In this document: one piece after another, positions 1 through 25,177 of the stretch
Numbering within the stretch: the first letter of the stretch is position 1
Layout of the letters: the number at the start of each line of letters is the position of its first letter
DNA from: a virus
Taxonomy: Duplodnaviria; Heunggongvirae; Uroviricota; Caudoviricetes
IMG/VR virus record: IMGVR_UViG_2711768075_000013
Coordinates: 1 to 33,974 of that record
Length of the DNA: 33,974 nt
Reading direction: 5' to 3' (one strand)
Translations under genes and position numbers: made by a program
Notes under the pieces: model-generated
What the model saw: only the letters and a program-made list of their open reading frames with translations
Databases searched by the model: none
Told to the model about the DNA's origin: nothing

Positions 1-1101
1 TCAGGCTATATTTCTTGTTATGTTATGCAGCTCAGCTGTAAAAATCAGCTCTCCCTTAGCGAAGGGAGTCCCCCCTCCTGGTTGAGTCATAAAACTCTGT
101 GAGACAGTCGTCCAGCTGTTTGTGTCACTTTGTACGCCATTCTCTGTAATCGTTGCACCTTCATGGCTGCCATTTTTCACTTTCCAGGCCAGGCGGTTAT
201 TGGGGGCATCAGCACCGCGGTAAGTGACCGAGGCCATAACGGCCACAACATCACTGTTGACGTTATCCACCGCACCAAACGTGGCCTGTGCTGCATTCAG
301 GGACGGCGAGAGCATCAGATATCCGGCCTCGCTGTCAGAGGTGTTCAGCCCCGTGACAATATCTTTATTCAGTGAGTTTTTGGCGCTTCCACCGGTAAAT
401 GCCGTTACCGGGCTGTATCTGACCTCAATGCTTCCGAGCAGGGCGGGTTCTGCACTATTATTTCTACCGTATGTCACTGTTCCACAGTACATATCACCCA
501 GCATTGACGTGCCGGATGCACCCGATGAAAAAATATTGTCACCACTACCAATACTCACCTGAATTTTGTCAGTCCGGTCATCTGGTACATAAAACGATGT
601 ATTTCCAACTAATGAGCGGTTGCAGTACAGACTGGCTGAGACATAGCCGTTTTCGTTTCGCGTTGCGAAAATTTCATAGTAATAACTGGCTGCTTCATCA
701 GGATACGGGGTTGTAAATGAATAGCCATTAATCCTGATGTGGGATGGCGAAGATGAATATTTCTTTCCCGCACTTAATGTCAGACGAAATCCCAGCTGTA
801 CAGCTGAGGCTTTTAAGTCCGGAAGTGTGCTGTACAGTGTGACATATGAGGATGTCGTGAAAATCAGCCCCGTTCTTTCTACAGTATTTACGGCCTGAGT
901 GCCACGACAGACGGATGTTACAGAACCGGACATATCATTGATAAGCGTGACACCGTTTTCGTTCAGTGCTGAAATAATATTTGTTGAATAATAGTTCTCG
1001 CACAATCCCTCATTCGCCGGAATTTGTCGAAAACTTTCGAGTTTTATAATATTCAAGGTCTGCTTTCCTTTTGTATCGGTTAATATATTTCTGAATACCA
1101 C
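1..1101 (-). CDS. S/T/N/G-rich protein, 366 aa, putative distal receptor-binding / second fibre protein; start uncertain (GTG, no clear SD)
   Basis: Composition typical of receptor-binding domains; visibly AT-richer than the rest of the prophage; TGA stop at positions 1-3. Confidence 0.35.
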   Translation of the reverse strand: MVFRNILTDTKGKQTLNIIKLESFRQIPANEGLCENYYSTNIISALNENGVTLINDMSGSVTSVCRGTQAVNTVERTGLIFTTSSYVTLYSTLPDLKASAVQLGFRLTLSAGKKYSSSPSHIRINGYSFTTPYPDEAASYYYEIFATRNENGYVSASLYCNRSLVGNTSFYVPDDRTDKIQVSIGSGDNIFSSGASGTSMLGDMYCGTVTYGRNNSAEPALLGSIEVRYSPVTAFTGGSAKNSLNKDIVTGLNTSDSEAGYLMLSPSLNAAQATFGAVDNVNSDVVAVMASVTYRGADAPNNRLAWKVKNGSHEGATITENGVQSDTNSWTTVSQSFMTQPGGGTPFAKGELIFTAELHNITRNIA

Positions 1102-2465: not shown

Positions 2466-3458
2466 TTAAGGCTCTGTGATAACGGCAAAGTGCAGCCCAT
2501 TATGGTTAACTACTAATGGGGTACTGCTGTTATTTGCTGTTTGTAAATGTATTTTGTTAATTGTCATCGGCTCCGTGGTCTGCCTTCCCGACTGCCACTG
2601 AACGGTATTAACTGTCAGTGGTTCAATAGTTCGCCGCTCCGACAATAGTTGCATTCTGTTAATCAGCAATGGTTCCTGACTCAGGTTTCCCGCCTGAAGC
2701 TGCGTATTGTTGATTGTGAGCGGTTTACCTTTCAGTACAGGAATAACTGCAAAATGCATTCCGGCATTATTTATCAGCAGAGGCGCATCAGCATGACATA
2801 CTGACTGAAACTGAATTCTGTTAATTGTCAGTGGTGATACTGGCTCTGGCTGAGATGTGATTTCATAAGTGAAATAACAGTCTGTAAAAGCCGGTTTAAG
2901 GTCTTTAAACGTGTTTTCTAAAATGGATTCACCAAAGGCCGTCAGCGGTTCGCCGGTTGCCGATGCGCCCGTTCTGAACCGGTAGACAGGTGTTTTTGTC
3001 CCGATAACATTGACCTGCCACGCCCAGCGGATTTCTGGTATCAGCAGGCGGTCGCCGCAGCGGTTTATCCCCACCCGGAATGGTCGCGGCTCCGTAATGG
3101 TGATGGTGTAGCCCAGACTGGCGGCAAGGCTTTTGAAGTAAGGGATTGACAGCCCCCCCGTGGCAGCCATTTTTACCAGAATGTTCTGACGCCGCTCCTG
3201 TTGTGTTGCCCCTTCACGAGGAATAACACCGTACACGCGCTCCCAGTCGGACAGCGTCATCGATGCCTGCAACGGGGTGATTTGTGTCAGAACGCGCGCC
3301 GCTGACGCCTTCACGACTTCCATGACGTCAGCCTCGGCTGTCAGTTCTGCGGAAATATATTTCCCGTTCAGGTCATAACTGACAGGTGGCAGCATGGCGC
3401 GAAATAAATCGACCATATTCATAAAATCACCCCTCGCGCGGAAAAGGCTGAATATCAA
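2466..3458 (-). CDS. baseplate protein gp48-like (YmfQ/DUF2313-like) with about 130-aa C-terminal repeat extension
   Basis: N-terminal about 200 aa resemble the gp48 family; the C-terminus carries roughly seven 18-20-aa repeats of the form PLxxNxxxxQ. Confidence 0.55.
   Translation of the reverse strand: MIFSLFRARGDFMNMVDLFRAMLPPVSYDLNGKYISAELTAEADVMEVVKASAARVLTQITPLQASMTLSDWERVYGVIPREGATQQERRQNILVKMAATGGLSIPYFKSLAASLGYTITITEPRPFRVGINRCGDRLLIPEIRWAWQVNVIGTKTPVYRFRTGASATGEPLTAFGESILENTFKDLKPAFTDCYFTYEITSQPEPVSPLTINRIQFQSVCHADAPLLINNAGMHFAVIPVLKGKPLTINNTQLQAGNLSQEPLLINRMQLLSERRTIEPLTVNTVQWQSGRQTTEPMTINKIHLQTANNSSTPLVVNHNGLHFAVITEP
2470..2860. repeat. degenerate tandem repeats of about 57-60 bp encoding the gp48-like C-terminal extension
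   Basis: Recurring CTGTTAATTGTCAGTGG-like segments; peptide repeats PLTINRIQFQS / PLLINNAGMHFAV / PLTINNTQLQ and similar. Confidence 0.4.
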
Positions 3459-18728: not shown

Positions 18729-20316
18729 TCAGTCTCCCCCAGATATCCGCCACAAAGAACGCCTGTGTCAGCAACTGCCGCAGCGTGTCATCCGGCAGTT
18801 CCGGCCAGGCTTCCGCCAGTACGTTCATGGCCTCATCTGCATCACGACCTTCCTGTATGGCCTGCACCAGAGGTGCCACCAGTTCGTTCATCCCCTGCGC
18901 AATGGCCTCTGCCGGAAGTTCTGCCCGGTCAATGGCGCGCTGTGCCGGGTCGTCCTCCCCGTTGTCCTGCTGACTGAGCACGGCAATATTCAGCCGTTCA
19001 CGCAGCTGGCTGAGACCAGCCTGCACAGGGAGACGCTGAGCTACCGGCACCAGTACCTCTTCGCCGTCTTTCGGGGTGGGAATACCGGTTTTTTGGCGTA
19101 CCCACGACACCGGGATATCCTTCATCCCCACATTGTTAACCAGCACGCTGACGGCTTCTGCCACACTCTTAATGTCGGCTTCCTGCTGCACATCAAACAC
19201 CAGACGTGGCAGGCGACGCGGTGGGATATCCTGCCAGCCGTTGAGACTGGCCATCATCTGTATCAGACTACTGAACATGCCGGACAGCTGGCGAGCATCG
19301 GCGGTCAGAATGTCGTGCCGGACCTCGTTATGCACATTACCCAGCGCGTTGGTGGAGGATTTGCCGTCGGCCTGACTGGTCAGTGTACTGCCCAGGATCA
19401 CTTTTGAGGTGGTACGCTCCGCCCATTCCACCATCGACATGAACGCCTCCGGCCCGCCGGAGGCGGCCTCCTTGAATTCAATCTCGTTACCCTGAGGGAG
19501 TGCTGCCACCGCTTCATGGCCCAGATTGACCAGGGCTTCGAGAATGTTGTCCCGGTCAGCATCACTGGTGCCCTGTGCATAGTAGGCAATGCGCGCCGGA
19601 AGACCGTAAATCTCCAGAAATTCCGCCATATCACGCAGCGCAAAGTTTTTAAACAGATACGGCCAGACCAGTACGCGGAACAGGCCGGATGAACCCAGGA
19701 ACCCCGACCGGGCGTTGTAACGATGAACCAGCCAGCCGAACGGCCACAGCGCGGAACCGACTTTACCATCTTCCCCACAGTTGCCGTCATCCAGCCGGAG
19801 TTCGTCATTGTGTTCCGGCAGGGTAATAAACCAGTTATGCGGTCGCAGCGTTACCGCATCCGGTAGCCACGTTTTGTCCACGAACGCCCAGCTGATTTCC
19901 TGACAGCTGAAACCGTAACCGACACTGCTCATCCCGTTGAGGATGATGTCCTCCATATCCGGGATACCGTGCAGCCACTCATCCACGGCGGCGGCCAGCT
20001 CCTTTTCAGCCTTCGAGGCATTGCGGGGTGGCTCCACCGACCAGTCCAGCGTCAGCAACGCTTTTTTGCGCTTTTCCATCTCGGCGAACAGATGGCCGTC
20101 ACGTTCTTCCATATCCGCAAACAGCATCGCCTGCGCCGGAAGATAACCGCGTTCGGCTGCTTCCAGAATGCGCGGCAGTTTTCTGATGTTCAGACCACGC
20201 GACGGGTGGTCGGGATAAATGCGCAGCCGTTCCGCCACCCGGACCGACTGCGTGGTTTTGAGTGCCTCACGTTTCAGCGGGCGTCCGTAAATATCAACAA
20301 GCTGTGCCATTACCAT
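18715..20316 (-). CDS. portal protein (Mu gp29-like)
   Basis: 533-aa ORF between large terminase and the F-like gene, overlapping both. Confidence 0.8.
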   Translation of the reverse strand: MVMAQLVDIYGRPLKREALKTTQSVRVAERLRIYPDHPSRGLNIRKLPRILEAAERGYLPAQAMLFADMEERDGHLFAEMEKRKKALLTLDWSVEPPRNASKAEKELAAAVDEWLHGIPDMEDIILNGMSSVGYGFSCQEISWAFVDKTWLPDAVTLRPHNWFITLPEHNDELRLDDGNCGEDGKVGSALWPFGWLVHRYNARSGFLGSSGLFRVLVWPYLFKNFALRDMAEFLEIYGLPARIAYYAQGTSDADRDNILEALVNLGHEAVAALPQGNEIEFKEAASGGPEAFMSMVEWAERTTSKVILGSTLTSQADGKSSTNALGNVHNEVRHDILTADARQLSGMFSSLIQMMASLNGWQDIPPRRLPRLVFDVQQEADIKSVAEAVSVLVNNVGMKDIPVSWVRQKTGIPTPKDGEEVLVPVAQRLPVQAGLSQLRERLNIAVLSQQDNGEDDPAQRAIDRAELPAEAIAQGMNELVAPLVQAIQEGRDADEAMNVLAEAWPELPDDTLRQLLTQAFFVADIWGRLNADS

Positions 20317-22007
20317 CCTCCTGAACCAAAACGCCCGCCACGGTCACGCCCGGTGCTGCGTGGGGTGTGTATCTGAAATTTTGCGCTGCGCGATACCGCC
20401 AGCGTCCACAGCATGTGCAGACAGTCCGGGCCATCATCGTGGTCGGCTTTGGGGTAGTGGCGCAGCTGGTCAATCAGCGTCTGATGTGTGTGGCTGATAC
20501 GAATCAGGCCGTTGGCCATATGCGGCTGAAGGGATTCGATACGCAGCGCTTTATCCTCCAGCGGGATGACCGGCAGCGCCGGAACCGGCACACCCAGCGC
20601 CGCCGAACGCTCAACCAGCACGGTACGCAGAAACTCCTGAAACTGAACGGACTCAAACGACCAGCACAGGCAGTGATATTCCCGCTGATACTTAATCACA
20701 TCTTCGATAAGTTTATCTGGCAGACGCCGGCGGATATCGGCTTCAACCACATCCAGTATGCCGGTAAAACGGTTAAAGCCCCCCACGAGAATGGCCGACG
20801 GGTCGCGGTTTTTATTCTTCTTCCCGAGGCTGGGGTCAACAGCGCCGTAGAACACCCATTCATCAAGACGGTTAACCCAGAACTTAATGCAGCCCGCAAA
20901 CAGCGCATCTTCACCGCTGACCGGGTCGTTCTGGTATTCAGAATCAAAGGTGTCGTGACCGTCACGGACACGGATTTTCATCAGCGCCAGCAGGGGACGC
21001 GCCGCCCATGACACCACCGACCCGGCGAGCATGTCGGCTTCGTTCTGCCGGTAAAGTGCCTCCGCTGCTTCCGGCTGTTTGTTGCGGATGAGTTCTTCCC
21101 ACTCGTCCCACAGCTTCATGTTGGCAGGCCACTGAATAACGGCCTTAAAGCGGGCCGTTTTCCACATCGGATTATTCAGCGTGCGCGACAGTACGGAGTC
21201 GTAATGCAGGATGGTTCCGATATAAATAATATCGGTTTTACCGCCAGCCTCGCCCAGCGGCATCACGGTTTTGGTGAGCCAGTCATGCAGCTTGTCGCGC
21301 TGCTCCGGGTTACGCACCATCTCGTCGTTCTCGATATCGTCGAGGATAACCAGGTCAGGACGGTACGGGCCGTGGCGCAGACCACGCAGTTTTTTACCAC
21401 TACCGGCAACGGTCACCTTGATATTGTTGGCCGTGACGATGGTCCCCATACGCCAGACGCGACCCTGCCCGCACACTTCCGGGAAATCGTTTTTTAAACG
21501 GGGGTTAAACTCCAGTTCAGCCTTGATGGCTTCCAGCATCGGATAAGCCTGGTCGATACTGTCCATAATGATGACCGGGTAATGCTTAATGGCCCGGATA
21601 ATGGTCCACAGGGTAAACAGCTGAGTCACCAGCGTGGATTTTGCTTCACCACGGGGCGCGGCGATGGCGTCGTTCTCCGGGTCCGGGCTTGCCACAACCT
21701 GTGGCAGACGGCTGAACAGGTATTTATGCAGCTCACTTTTTGCCGGGTTGCGGACGTAGTGCGGGAAATAATTTTCGACAAAATAATCGTAGCCCGTCAC
21801 CGGGTCGCAGACTGCCGCCCGGCGGGCCTGTGTGGCCTGCGGGTTAACATCGAACCCCAGACATTCAGCCTCGATGGTCTGGCGGAGGTTGGCGATGTAC
21901 TCCTGCAGGCTTCTCTGAAACTCTTTAATGGAAAGTTTACGTTTTGCCACGTCACACCTGCACTGCTTCTGTCTGGGCTTTTTCGATACGTGCGCAGGCG
22001 ATATCAA
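20310..22007 (-). CDS. terminase large subunit (Mu gp28-like); start uncertain, TTG at 22007
   Basis: 565-aa ORF at the expected position upstream of portal; overlaps the methyltransferase 3' end by about 56 nt. Confidence 0.8.
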   Translation of the reverse strand: MISPAHVSKKPRQKQCRCDVAKRKLSIKEFQRSLQEYIANLRQTIEAECLGFDVNPQATQARRAAVCDPVTGYDYFVENYFPHYVRNPAKSELHKYLFSRLPQVVASPDPENDAIAAPRGEAKSTLVTQLFTLWTIIRAIKHYPVIIMDSIDQAYPMLEAIKAELEFNPRLKNDFPEVCGQGRVWRMGTIVTANNIKVTVAGSGKKLRGLRHGPYRPDLVILDDIENDEMVRNPEQRDKLHDWLTKTVMPLGEAGGKTDIIYIGTILHYDSVLSRTLNNPMWKTARFKAVIQWPANMKLWDEWEELIRNKQPEAAEALYRQNEADMLAGSVVSWAARPLLALMKIRVRDGHDTFDSEYQNDPVSGEDALFAGCIKFWVNRLDEWVFYGAVDPSLGKKNKNRDPSAILVGGFNRFTGILDVVEADIRRRLPDKLIEDVIKYQREYHCLCWSFESVQFQEFLRTVLVERSAALGVPVPALPVIPLEDKALRIESLQPHMANGLIRISHTHQTLIDQLRHYPKADHDDGPDCLHMLWTLAVSRSAKFQIHTPRSTGRDRGGRFGSGGW

Positions 22008-22692
22008 AATACTGGTTAGTCATTTCAATGCCGGTAAACCGTCCGCCACGGGCAAGTACAGGGATGGCGGTAGTGCCGCTTCCCATAAACGGATCAAGGA
22101 CGTGCGCATCCGGTGTCAGCGGTTTAACCAGCTCAGCCATCAGCTGAACCGGCTTTGCGGTCATGTGCAGTTTTTCGGACGGGACGACACGCTGCGTAAT
22201 CACACCCGGGAACGGGCCACCGTGCGGGCATTTGTCGAGTTTTCCGTTGCTGCCCCAGACCACATACTCGGCCTGATGCCGAAAATAGCCAGTGTGTGGC
22301 GCACGGGAAGCCTGCGTTTTATCCCAGACAACCAGACCACGCCACAGCACACCACCGGCCTGAAATGCATCTGTAAGCGCCGGTAGTTGTCGCCAGTCAC
22401 TGAACACCATGAAATAACCGCCGGAATTCAGCCTGTGCAATGCATGAGATATCCACATGGAACACCAGAACGCCCAGCTGCGCTGGTCGCGGTTATCGCC
22501 GGTGAACTCGGCATACTGGGTGTGACCGATATACTTGTCCGAAGGGGCCATGCTGCGGTCTGATTTGTGTGTACCACCACTGCTGTAAGGCGGGTCGGTA
22601 ATGACGGCATCAAAACGTTCGGATAACGCCGGCAGCACATCAAGAACATCACCGCAATACAACGTTGCGTTACCAATAATCTGTTTTTGCAT
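21952..22692 (-). CDS. DNA methyltransferase, beta-class N6-adenine or N4-cytosine (orphan)
   Basis: Motif IV DPPY (AVITDPPYSSGG) precedes motif I FxGxG (DPFMGSGTTAI); no adjacent restriction enzyme; inserted between the small and large terminase genes. Confidence 0.8.
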   Translation of the reverse strand: MQKQIIGNATLYCGDVLDVLPALSERFDAVITDPPYSSGGTHKSDRSMAPSDKYIGHTQYAEFTGDNRDQRSWAFWCSMWISHALHRLNSGGYFMVFSDWRQLPALTDAFQAGGVLWRGLVVWDKTQASRAPHTGYFRHQAEYVVWGSNGKLDKCPHGGPFPGVITQRVVPSEKLHMTAKPVQLMAELVKPLTPDAHVLDPFMGSGTTAIPVLARGGRFTGIEMTNQYFDIACARIEKAQTEAVQV

Positions 22693-22738
22693 TACAAATC
22701 CCGAATATCAGACGACCCGGAAAACCGGGCCGCTGTGG

Positions 22739-23239
22739 TTAACTGAAATTATCCTCAAGCTCTTTAGCGAAGCCTTCGAGCACCTCAAGAAACGGGGCAT
22801 ACTGCGTCGGGTGACGCTCCTTGATGAACGCGCCGAGCCGCTGCACCACTTCCAGTGCCGTGGCGAGCCGGTCGGTTTCCGGCAGGATTTTTTTACTGCT
22901 GGCCACCGCCTTACTGAGACTGTCGGACAGACTCGCCAGCAGTTCGACGGACTCCTGCGGCGGGATGTCCGGGTTCTGGTTCAGCCGTTCAAGCGTCGTC
23001 TGACACTTCACCACCAGACTGATAAGCACGGTGCGGGCGACACTTTCCAGCCCGTCACCGGCGAGCGCGTGCGCGGCCCGCAGCTTGTCCCAGTCGTCGC
23101 CGTTCTTCATCGCCTGCGTTTTCCAGCGCCGCGCGGTGTCGTGCGGCACGGCGTACTTCATGGCGACGATATCCAGCGGAAGCTGGTCAAAGATGTACCC
23201 GTTACGGACTTTGTCCCTGATATCCTGTGACCACGCCAT
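22739..23239 (-). CDS. terminase small subunit-like DNA-binding protein (Mu gp27 position)
   Basis: 166-aa alpha-helical protein directly upstream of the large-terminase region. Confidence 0.5.
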   Translation of the reverse strand: MAWSQDIRDKVRNGYIFDQLPLDIVAMKYAVPHDTARRWKTQAMKNGDDWDKLRAAHALAGDGLESVARTVLISLVVKCQTTLERLNQNPDIPPQESVELLASLSDSLSKAVASSKKILPETDRLATALEVVQRLGAFIKERHPTQYAPFLEVLEGFAKELEDNFS

Positions 23240-23445
23240 TAAGTGTCCTTCTGAGCCTGTTCAATCCTGCGCTGAACTTCGTCGGGATTTTCAAGAACAA
23301 ATACGTTTTTCCCGGTATCCAGTTCAATGACCGTGCCATCATGTGTACCGTACTGACGGTAAAAATGGGTGATTCGTTCAGCGAGCACCATGACAGCGCC
23401 AGCACCTCCTGAACCTGTGTATTCTGTAAATCTGATAATGCTCAC
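23239..23445 (-). CDS. hypothetical protein, 68 aa (Mu gp26 position)
   Basis: Stop overlaps the start of the small terminase-like gene. Confidence 0.4.
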   Translation of the reverse strand: MSIIRFTEYTGSGGAGAVMVLAERITHFYRQYGTHDGTVIELDTGKNVFVLENPDEVQRRIEQAQKDT

Positions 23446-23465
23446 TGTGTCAGACCTTCAAAAAA

Positions 23466-23648
23466 TCAGTTCTGCGAACACTGCCGGATACCGTCAATAA
23501 TCCGGCAGACCTGCGCCGCCGCGTCAAACAGCTGGCCCGCTCTGTTAATGTCTGAGCATCCCACCGGAAGCAACATCATCAGAAACAGGGCCAGAACACA
23601 GCGCGCGGCTTTACGTGGCGTTCTGTGGGGCCAGCGACTTCTGTTCAT
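23466..23648 (-). CDS. small lipoprotein (o-spanin-like lysis accessory candidate)
   Basis: Hydrophobic segment then LLPVGC lipobox-like motif, about 30-aa mature part; position right after the endolysin. Confidence 0.4.
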   Translation of the reverse strand: MNRSRWPHRTPRKAARCVLALFLMMLLPVGCSDINRAGQLFDAAAQVCRIIDGIRQCSQN

Positions 23649-23661
23649 AACCCGTCCCGCA

Positions 23662-24039
23662 TCAGCGTTTTAACTGGAAATGAGGCCCGTCTTTCAGCGT
23701 TTTCCAGTCTCCGCCCCATTCGATGGCGACACCCAGCTCTGCGGCAGCCTGTTTAAAGGCACGGGCGATTTTTTCGTATAACGGCCAGTCCCATGAAATA
23801 GTGCTACCAACGTAAGCCACGACATCAACGGCATCGCCAGTAAGGTGACGGCTGTTCATGGTCTGGCTCTTGCCTTCAGCGACAAGTTGTTTCTGACGTT
23901 CTTTCGTGCGTAAACCTTCGGTAATACCAAAATCGACGTCCGACAACGCCAGCGCACGGCGTACAACTGCCACCAGTTGTGGCTTTACGTCAGCCAGATT
24001 TTTCTCGCTACGTTGACTGAAACGGAATTTTCCCGACAT
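23662..24039 (-). CDS. endolysin, peptidase M15 family (L-alanyl-D-glutamate endopeptidase-like), about 126 aa
   Basis: Start MSGKFRF with GGAGGTG RBS; residues H..D..H consistent with a zinc peptidase; ORF-track 206-aa form is an upstream extension. Confidence 0.7.
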   Translation of the reverse strand: MSGKFRFSQRSEKNLADVKPQLVAVVRRALALSDVDFGITEGLRTKERQKQLVAEGKSQTMNSRHLTGDAVDVVAYVGSTISWDWPLYEKIARAFKQAAAELGVAIEWGGDWKTLKDGPHFQLKR

Positions 24040-24837: not shown

Positions 24838-24868
24838 GGGTACTGCTGGGGGTGTTCAGCACCCCCGG
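24838..24868 (-). promoter_or_regulatory. conserved hairpin-like motif upstream of the lysis cassette (late-promoter activator site candidate)
   Basis: Minus-sense CCGGGGGTGCTGAACACCCCCAGCAGTACCC: 7-bp inverted arms GGGGGTG / CACCCCC around CTGAA. Confidence 0.35.
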
Positions 24869-24889
24869 CAGGTTGATTATCTGGATGGG

Positions 24890-25177
24890 TTAAAGGGAAG
24901 CGAGTTTTAATGGTGGCTTATAACATGCCCGCGCCAGCAGGTTAGCTCTTTCCACGGCATTACGCATTTCCCGTTCTGCGTCAATCATTCTGTTTACGGC
25001 TGACAGCACTTCATCATGATTCGTTACTGATTCCGGGCTTTGGGCCTGTTTCGCCAGGTAACTGGATAAATTGCACATTTCAGCATGTCGGCGACGGGCT
25101 GCATCCCGGGCCTTGTCTGAAAATGCGGTATATTCACCGAGTACTGCATAGTCGATATCGGTGTCAGAACGCATCAT
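24890..25177 (-). CDS. hypothetical protein, 95 aa
   Basis: AAGGAGA RBS upstream of ATG; lies between the activator gene and the lysis-operon motif. Confidence 0.4.
   Translation of the reverse strand: MMRSDTDIDYAVLGEYTAFSDKARDAARRRHAEMCNLSSYLAKQAQSPESVTNHDEVLSAVNRMIDAEREMRNAVERANLLARACYKPPLKLASL

Follow-up and report, generated by a model that had tools for sequence, protein, structure and literature searches.

Bacteriophage Mu modifies its DNA late against restriction by means of Mom, which acts together with Com. Mu-like prophages that have no mom carry non-specific adenine methyltransferases (Hia5, Hin1523, and Nma1821), which have been proposed to be Mom substitutes (Drozdz et al. 2012, PMC3299994) and are encoded at the prophage's right end, in the position of mom and downstream of a com homologue. 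Hia5-type enzymes are Dam-related, with motif I preceding motif IV, and are called α class in a study that also describes M.EcoGII and M.EcoGI, β-class non-specific adenine methyltransferases of E. coli prophages that are silent in lysogens (Murray et al. 2018, PMC5778455). Other orphan β-class enzymes, which temperate phages carry and whose presumed role is protection of the phage genome, belong to the family phrog_67. They include Bpm of Bordetella phage BPP-1, the methyltransferase of the E. coli P2-like phage Chuche, and gp20 and gp28 of the Burkholderia phages KS5 and KL3, respectively, for none of which did we find a published recognition sequence. In the P2-like phage KS5, the methyltransferase is paired with a translational regulator of the Mu Com type (gp21/gp20, PMC3091744).

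The gene analyzed here lies in a 33,974-nt stretch of DNA, the window (IMG/VR record IMGVR_UViG_2711768075_000013), between two genes of the same orientation:

22739 to 23239, minus strand: DUF1804 protein, the upstream neighbor (Pfam DUF1804, 2.4e-52; phrog_756, DNA binding protein)
21952 to 22692, minus strand: predicted orphan β-class DNA amino-methyltransferase, 246 aa, ATG start (ORF)
20310 to 21950, minus strand: large terminase TerL, 546 aa, GTG start at 21950 (RefSeq; NCBIfam TIGR01630 phage terminase large subunit, 2e-25)

The DUF1804 protein is a homologue of Mu gp27, which the Mu annotation calls the small terminase subunit, and a Mu-type portal gene follows TerL. The element is a Mu-like prophage of E. 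coli, in which the methyltransferase gene is optional and stands alone. An identical stretch (100%) occurs in NZ_CP086627.1, where the methyltransferase is WP_001171799.1, of which there is also a 91% allele; the gene is thus already annotated as a DNA methyltransferase in RefSeq, and represents a type of accessory gene familiar from phages. Megablast of window positions 20000-24000 against sequenced phages returned no match, which leaves the prophage lineage without a close isolated relative in the sequenced-phage collection. No restriction endonuclease gene adjoins the methyltransferase gene, whose flanks are DUF1804 and TerL only, which agrees with the first-pass annotation and speaks against a type II restriction-modification system with an adjacent cognate endonuclease. 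None is annotated in the matching RefSeq prophage or was seen in the orthologous loci and contexts examined, and the unannotated ORFs tested for defense systems gave no match.

Family, motif order, and predicted fold all point to a β-class, AdoMet-dependent DNA amino-methyltransferase. In the profile search suggested by the first-pass annotation, the protein matched Pfam N6_N4_Mtase (PF01555; E 1.7e-24, 87.5 bits vs. a cut-off of 26.7). It also matched the PADLOC MTase_II model PDLC03321 (2.4e-65) and phrog_67 (1.4e-53), a family of phage methyltransferases that is very large, with >7,500 homologues found at E≤1e-10. Reading of the translation confirmed that DPPY stands ahead of FxGSGT, the N-terminal position of motif IV being the β-class order:

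22585 to 22596, minus strand: catalytic motif IV, DPPY, residues 33-36 (Thr32-Asp33-Pro34-Pro35-Tyr36 invariant in 41 homologues)
22072 to 22089, minus strand: AdoMet-binding motif I, FMGSGT, residues 202-207, aligned with motif I of M1.HpyAVI

Residues Asp200-Pro201-Phe202-Met203-Gly204-Ser205 are likewise invariant in the 41 homologues; in the Serratia and Limnobaculum orthologues, motif I reads FMGSAST vs. FMGSGTT here. A full-length sequence match was obtained with M1.HpyAVI (5.6e-14, residues 24-236), and CcrM, M.BceJIV, and MboIIA were also matched. The best Foldseek matches of the AF2 model (pLDDT 82.9, pTM 0.84) were CcrM, M.BceJIV, and M1.HpyAVI (E 1e-14 to 1e-15, TM 0.6-0.8). Only the short loops 37-63 and 128-137 are poorly modeled, with no separate recognition domain, and family members (41 homologues) differ hardly at all in loops 128-140 and 158-163. 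M1.HpyAVI (5hek/5hfj), M.BceJIV (8urk), and CcrM (6pbd) share the fold and motif arrangement of our protein at ∼20-24% identity but, unlike it, are cellular enzymes, either parts of restriction-modification systems or chromosomal orphans. Their specificities are therefore not transferable. The modified base is most probably N6-adenine, as suggested by the DPPY motif and by the closest sequence and fold relatives, which are indicative only. NCBIfam PRK11524, the model for YhdJ, the ATGCAT methyltransferase of E. coli/Salmonella, aligned with the C-terminal motif region only (41 bits vs. a cut-off of 292). In the methylome literature on Salmonella Senftenberg, O111 STEC, ST131, and Burkholderia, we found no recognition motif assigned to the family.

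Among the described systems, the phrog_67 phage orphans resemble the gene most, with 43-53% identity over almost the full length (53% for Chuche), the same size and motif order, and no endonuclease partner. Their settings differ. Bpm follows cro in the early operon, whereas our gene is in the late operon; the Burkholderia copy is flanked by tail genes and has an orientation of its own, whereas ours abuts TerL; and in Chuche and KS5 a Com-type regulator lies upstream, whereas tblastn with Chuche Com found no match in the window or in any of the loci. M.EcoGII and M.EcoGI also have DPPY before FxGxG, are borne by E. coli prophages, and fall in phrog_67, but the enzymes of this type are 349-352 aa long, compared with 246 aa here. 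Membership of their subfamily was rejected, as the homologue in phage 1720a-02 (352 aa), which is encoded downstream of Q in a lambdoid phage, aligns with our protein at the motifs only (30%/63 aa and 29%/51 aa). The Hia5/Hin1523/Nma1821 group was also rejected: its motif order is opposite to that of our predicted β-class enzyme, its genes occupy the mom position rather than the DUF1804-TerL junction, and there is no Com-like ORF in the window. Neither com nor mom is annotated at the matching RefSeq prophage's right end. With Mom itself, the methyltransferase shares the proposed role, but no relation of sequence or position.

The junction with TerL was re-examined. Although the 3' end of the methyltransferase gene had been described as overlapping the TerL start, the two genes abut. 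TerL starts at the conserved GTG at 21950, one base past the methyltransferase TGA (21952-21954), i.e. with a stop-to-start distance of 1 nt, and its N-terminus is conserved in relatives. The apparent overlap arose because the long ORF had been read from its earliest possible start, a TTG at 22007. In Xenorhabdus and Photorhabdus relatives, the aligned TerL start is an ATG (MAKK...), and in relatives without the methyltransferase, non-coding sequence precedes the same TerL start. The TerL Shine-Dalgarno sequence lies within the methyltransferase gene, and the same AGGTG is kept upstream of TerL in relatives that do not have this gene, as assessed by junction comparison. At the other end of the methyltransferase gene there is a hairpin:

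21955 to 21959, minus strand: TerL Shine-Dalgarno sequence, AGGTG, contained in the methyltransferase's final sense codons (CAG GTG)
22714 to 22731, minus strand: GC-rich hairpin, GGCCCGG-TTTT-CCGGGTC, just 3' of the DUF1804 stop (RNA fold)

This hairpin has no T-run and is therefore not a canonical terminator. A terminator scan did not call it, reporting only a weaker overlapping stem (22722-22699). It is conserved across E. coli, Yersinia, Trabulsiella, and Intestinirhabdus loci, with or without the methyltransferase, but in only part of the clade. Neither between the holin and methyltransferase genes nor downstream of the latter did the scan report a canonical terminator, and a simple promoter scan of the minus strand upstream of the methyltransferase found no σ70-like site. 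Co-expression with the terminase is thus expected, because the methyltransferase gene has no recognizable promoter of its own, is spaced 1 nt from TerL, and holds the TerL ribosome-binding site in its last codons. Its GC content (0.55-0.57) equals that of the flanks, and its base composition does not point to a recent foreign source. With neither promoter nor terminator of its own found, and the same GC content as its surroundings, the gene is not a moron in the strict sense.

The gene is, however, optional within its lineage. Alignment with the prophages of STEC346, UMNF18, and F163 delimits the segment concerned:

21961 to 22703, minus strand: 743-nt segment separating methyltransferase-positive from methyltransferase-negative prophages

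This segment consists of an 11-nt leader and the ORF minus its last three codons, and in methyltransferase-negative E. coli prophages it is replaced by the 7 nt TGTATAC. A simple microhomology deletion was rejected, as the junction (TGTATAC vs. CGGGATTTGTA-ATG...GTG) is unfit for a clean one-step deletion. In 5,426 complete E. coli genomes, the methyltransferase is found in 36 and the DUF1804 gene of the lineage in 55, meaning that about two thirds of these prophages carry the methyltransferase and about one third do not. E2348/69 and RIVM_C036569 are among the lysogens that have it. Since prophages that are ∼97% identical do without it, the gene is dispensable, and any benefit must be conditional. 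Because it varies in presence between near-identical genomes, and because relatives have other cargo at the same site, it is a moron in the broad sense.

Outside E. coli, the same slot is filled in Yersinia (80% identity), Serratia (76%), Intestinirhabdus, Buttiauxella, and Limnobaculum (67%). Identity of the methyltransferase tracks that of TerL and DUF1804 (rho 0.89), all 22 slot orthologues have kept an intact reading frame, and dN/dS values of 0.05-0.25 reveal purifying selection. Because at least five other enterobacterial genera share the slot, and because the gene has diverged together with its flanks, this is not a one-off insertion. The term "inserted" used in the first-pass annotation therefore holds in so far as ∼97% identical prophages have 7 nt in place of the 743-nt segment, but not in so far as orthologues hold the same slot and co-diverge. 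Comparison of these loci indicates that the methyltransferase, although dispensable, has long resided in a variable cargo slot of one enterobacterial Mu-like prophage lineage. Across 138 loci, DUF1804 and TerL are separated by −4 to about 1,570 nt, and the cargo is varied; it includes a C5-cytosine methyltransferase (Neisseria), a DUF4145 protein, a HicB-like protein, and several uncharacterized reverse-strand genes. The methyltransferase is not a core gene of Mu-like phages: it occurs in two of 58 species-representative DUF1804 loci and is absent from the other 56, as well as from the gp27-gp28 position of Mu and from this position in SuMu and Klebsiella phage ST405-OXA48phi1.1. In Mu, the gap is 7 nt and has no methyltransferase, in agreement with the first-pass annotation. 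Salmonella Mu-like prophages have a homologue within the lysis cassette instead, and other phages have one at unrelated positions. In the literature searched, no paper names both DUF1804 and a methyltransferase.

Taken as a whole, the explanation that we consider likely is a stand-alone N6-adenine-type methyltransferase, expressed late with the terminase, that protects progeny DNA from restriction. The gene, in the same orientation within the late lysis/packaging/head string, would share transcription and translation with the terminase once the prophage is induced. Replicated phage DNA would be methylated before or during headful packaging, and progeny genomes would reach the next host already protected against those restriction enzymes that are blocked by the methylation. 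We infer the modified base, the late expression, and the anti-restriction benefit, the late expression from gene order and the simple promoter scan only; a promoter of a kind outside that scan, or read-through in lysogens, may also contribute. Self-protection by methylation of progeny DNA, which had been put forward before this analysis, is plausible and conventional.

The nature of the modified base might be challenged. The β class includes N4-cytosine enzymes, Pfam N6_N4_Mtase covers both activities, and the rotifer N4CMT 8s9m was matched by sequence (2.5e-6) as well as by Foldseek (9.4e-14), and M.PvuII (1boo) also figures among the matches; we count the presence of 8s9m among the structural matches against our best explanation. 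In characterized N4-cytosine β enzymes, motif IV is typically SPPY/SPPF (Malone et al. 1995, as cited in PMC3299994). Here, it is DPPY, invariant in 41 homologues, N6-adenine enzymes alone make up the best matches by sequence and by fold, and homologues are annotated as adenine-specific at source, which makes an N4-cytosine methyltransferase quite unlikely. It is unlikely, too, that the enzyme methylates adenine in a relaxed or non-specific way, replacing Mom and protecting against many restriction systems at once, in the manner of Hia5/Hin1523 and M.EcoGII. Non-specific phage adenine methyltransferases that are silent in lysogens do exist in both the α and the β class (PMC3299994; PMC5778455). 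No com or mom is annotated in the matching RefSeq prophage, P2-like phage relatives are coupled to Com, the regulator of mom, and the protein is small (246 aa), its poorly modeled parts being short loops and not a separate recognition domain. However, it falls outside the Hia5 and M.EcoGII families, its loops 128-140 and 158-163 are almost invariant, as expected of a fixed recognition surface, and the equally small β-class enzymes M.BceJIV and M1.HpyAVI are sequence-specific. The target of M1.HpyAVI is GAGG. That of M.BceJIV is reported in the literature as GTWWAC. We regard as equally unlikely the broader proposal that this small enzyme would be a broad- or relaxed-specificity Mom substitute whose production is coupled to that of the terminase, the DNA being methylated shortly before headful packaging, and that the DUF1804-TerL junction would be a dedicated anti-defense/defense slot across Mu-like phages.

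A mainly regulatory function, i.e. epigenetic marking of phage or host promoters (lysogeny, induction), or of a packaging or replication site, would suit a gene placed directly between two packaging genes. P1 offers a precedent, since cleavage of its pac site is controlled by Dam methylation. The prophage methylase gp51 of Burkholderia cenocepacia H111 is reportedly needed for lysogeny (bioRxiv 10.1101/2020.03.09.983379). Near-identical prophages without the gene nevertheless keep the same packaging genes and regulators, so it is not integral to packaging or lysogeny control, and the homologues in the Salmonella lysis cassette and elsewhere in other phages mean that adjacency to the terminase is not required; this function is very improbable. 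As for a decaying restriction-modification remnant or an inactive passenger, an endonuclease partner is indeed missing, and for many methyltransferases of prophages the methylomes of lysogens show no motif (PMC6602927). Intact frames in 22 of 22 slot orthologues, invariance of all catalytic residues, strong purifying selection (dN/dS 0.05-0.25), and contexts free of any endonuclease gene leave this idea with almost no probability.

Late methylation of progeny DNA by a stand-alone N6-adenine-type enzyme would be one more example of its kind and no new principle, because orphan methyltransferases are a standard phage counter to restriction. Should its specificity turn out to be relaxed, chromatin footprinting would gain a compact (246-aa) enzyme beside the methyltransferases already in use. 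Across Mu-like phages, the DUF1804-TerL junction is a hypervariable cargo site that could be mined for further anti-defense or defense genes. In E. coli, naturally matched prophage pairs, ∼97% identical and with or without the gene, would allow a clean test of its contribution to host range.

The window, an E. coli Mu-like prophage, has every gene on the minus strand, and its positions 20000-24000 match seven complete E. coli genomes, e.g. NZ_CP086627.1, at 100% identity. The early region is ~625 nt shorter than in NZ_CP086627.1, so the window prophage is related to that one, not identical. The methyltransferase is an intact, selected, orphan beta-class gene, co-directional within the late gene string. 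It is followed by TerL (large terminase) and a Mu-type portal gene, and preceded by a DUF1804 gene, whose Mu homologue gp27 is annotated as the small terminase subunit; farther upstream are holins, an M15 endolysin, a Mor/C-family activator and GemA.

Features of the DUF1804-TerL junction
22739-23239, minus strand: DUF1804 gene (Pfam, 2.4e-52), upstream of the methyltransferase
22714-22731, minus strand: GC-rich hairpin GGCCCGG-NNNN-CCGGG(C/T)C, directly 3' of the DUF1804 stop
21952-22692, minus strand: methyltransferase ORF, 246 aa
22585-22596, minus strand: motif IV DPPY, residues 33-36, read directly from the sequence
22072-22089, minus strand: motif I FMGSGT, residues 202-207, read directly from the sequence
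21961-22703, 743 nt: presence/absence segment defined by alignment, replaced by TGTATAC in prophages without the methyltransferase
21955-21959, minus strand: TerL Shine-Dalgarno AGGTG, inside the final codons of the methyltransferase (CAG GTG)

As the first-pass annotation had noted, DPPY precedes motif I, which is the circularly permuted order of beta-class enzymes. The profile search it proposed returned Pfam N6_N4_Mtase at 1.7e-24 (87.5 bits, cut-off 26.7); a PADLOC type II methyltransferase model matches at full length (2.4e-65), and PHROG phrog_67, "DNA methyltransferase", also matches (1.4e-53). The best PDB sequence match is M1.HpyAVI (residues 24-236, 5.6e-14), followed by M.BceJIV, CcrM and MboIIA, with N4-cytosine enzymes ranking lower (2.5e-6). 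An AlphaFold2 model built with 41 homologues (pLDDT 82.9, pTM 0.84) is of low quality only in loops 37-63 and 128-137, and its Foldseek neighbours are CcrM, M.BceJIV and M1.HpyAVI (E ~1e-14 to 1e-15). The agreement of several independent searches confirms the beta-class assignment. DPPY and the ranking of the relatives favor a putative N6-adenine rather than N4-cytosine activity. In six orthologues from Serratia, Limnobaculum and related viral contigs (L008, L009, L010, L092, L095 and L096), motif I reads FMGSAST instead of FMGSGTT.

A long ORF (20310-22007) starts at a TTG within the methyltransferase gene. The true TerL start is the GTG at 21950, because RefSeq annotates it, relatives without the methyltransferase keep it after non-coding sequence, and the aligned start in Xenorhabdus and Photorhabdus relatives is ATG (MAKK...). 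The methyltransferase stop (TGA, 21952-21954) and the TerL start are separated by one base, so the overlap originally reported is in fact a gap. This spacing and the embedded Shine-Dalgarno suggest that the two genes are translationally coupled. The absence of an endonuclease partner was borne out: none adjoins the gene or is annotated in the matching RefSeq prophage, and no defence-system match was found among the unannotated ORFs scanned. The Mu gene order given there, with no methyltransferase at this point, was also correct: in phage Mu, 7 nt separate gp27 from gp28, and no methyltransferase lies between them.

At the matching RefSeq prophage's right end, a 351-aa hypothetical protein is found where com/mom would be expected, followed by the host gene dtpB. 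The window version is a 366-aa ORF (1-1101, minus strand) beyond the tail-fibre assembly gene, roughly at the Mu com/mom position, with a different C-terminal end from the 351-aa form in the 100%-matching record; its PHROG match is phrog_8291 (unknown function, 2.5e-238), and Pfam, NCBIfam and PADLOC gave no hit. A 330-aa ORF (2466-3458) contains a Mu Gp48 domain (compared with the locus L002:2860-3423), and its NZ_CP086627.1 counterpart is labeled in RefSeq as an incomplete YmfQ-family pseudogene.

The methyltransferase is dispensable, because near-identical prophages do without it: STEC346, UMNF18, F163 and other E. coli prophages lack it although their flanks are ~97% identical, and among 5,426 complete E. 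coli genomes 55 have the DUF1804 gene of this lineage and 36 the methyltransferase. It is present in 12 E. coli-type viral contigs and absent from seven. Forms with and without the gene share the post-DUF1804 hairpin and the CAGGTGTGAC-GTG leading into TerL. Nevertheless, the gene did not arrive recently as a one-off, because precisely this slot also contains orthologues in Yersinia (80% identity), Serratia (76%), Intestinirhabdus (76%), Buttiauxella (78%) and Limnobaculum (67%), its identity declines alongside that of TerL and DUF1804 (Spearman rho 0.89), its base composition is that of the flanks, and dN/dS against orthologues is 0.05-0.25. The alignment of relatives proposed in the first-pass annotation thus upholds only half of "inserted": the gene is optional, but long resident. 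E. coli prophages without it may have lost it or may have recombined with relatives in which it was never present. Within E. coli, alleles (87, 91 and 97% identity) are more diverged than their flanks (94-99%); the differences of the 91% allele are concentrated in one patch, residues ~70-110, which points to allelic exchange.

We surveyed 138 loci with a DUF1804 gene (L014-L151), drawn from 58 species-representative genomes and from 80 viral contigs. Across Mu-like prophages the gap to TerL, 21951-22738 in the window, is hypervariable (-4 to about 1,570 nt). Among its cargo are a forward-strand family of 65-aa ORFs (phrog_19649, 43 loci), several ORF families on the reverse strand (114-273 aa, no Pfam match), a DUF4145 protein (L142) and, in L047, a HicB-like protein. 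The beta-class methyltransferase occupies the gap in 22 loci, all in the sub-lineage with TerL >=77% identical to that of the window. A Neisseria flavescens prophage (L046:5476-6322) has a C5-cytosine methyltransferase (N-terminal half, Pfam DNA_methylase 1.4e-54), hence an unrelated class uses the same site; its split over two reading frames may be a frameshift or a sequencing error.

The enzyme has more than 7,500 homologues (E<=1e-10), and the family's varied positions across phages mark it as a mobile phage methyltransferase. In Salmonella enterica Mu-like prophages (L011-L013:4001-4753), a 60%-identical homologue is flanked by the holin and lysozyme genes, with a 4-nt overlap on each side, and other genes fill the terminase slot. 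Members follow cro in Bordetella phage BPP-1 and have tail genes on either side in P2-like Burkholderia phages. In P2-like Chuche (L001:5778-5984) and in KS5, whose gp21/gp20 are such a pair (PMC3091744), a Com-type zinc-finger translational regulator precedes the methyltransferase, which connects the family with the way Mu mom is controlled; the window has no Com homologue. Mom itself is unrelated, belonging to the acyltransferase superfamily (PMC3299994), and the enzyme is also outside the Hia5 family, whose members are related to Dam, have the opposite motif order and occupy the mom position with com (PMC3299994, PMC5778455). Membership of the M.EcoGII subfamily was rejected because the phage 1720a-02 homologue aligns at catalytic motifs only. 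The closest relatives (Chuche, BPP-1 Bpm and KL3 gp28; 43-53% identity) are uncharacterised phage methyltransferases, and we found no published recognition sequence for any close relative. Already annotated in RefSeq, the gene is an uncharacterised example of a well-known type.

No sigma-70-like promoter was found upstream of the methyltransferase, and the stretch from the holin gene to it contains no canonical terminator. The post-DUF1804 hairpin, retained apart from changes in its loop by prophages of E. coli, Yersinia, Trabulsiella and Intestinirhabdus with or without the methyltransferase, has no T-run. Separately, a GC-rich inverted repeat with a 13-bp stem (24843-24871) separates ORF 24890-25177 from the holin gene, near the expected late (lysis) transcript start; it could terminate the preceding unit or be a dyad bound by a regulator. 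After induction, the methyltransferase would be transcribed together with the lysis and packaging genes, translated immediately before TerL, and would methylate replicated phage DNA ahead of headful packaging, which may guard progeny against restriction in the next host. As precedents, prophage-borne methyltransferases, M.EcoGI and M.EcoGII among them, stay silent in lysogens (PMC5778455, PMC6602927), and Mu-like prophages without mom carry adenine methyltransferases instead (PMC3299994). The first-pass observation was right except for the overlap, and its interpretation broadly right but conventional, with "inserted" better replaced by "optionally resident in a variable slot". Among the by-products, the natural pairs of prophages that differ in having the methyltransferase and the variable DUF1804-TerL cargo slot are of most use.
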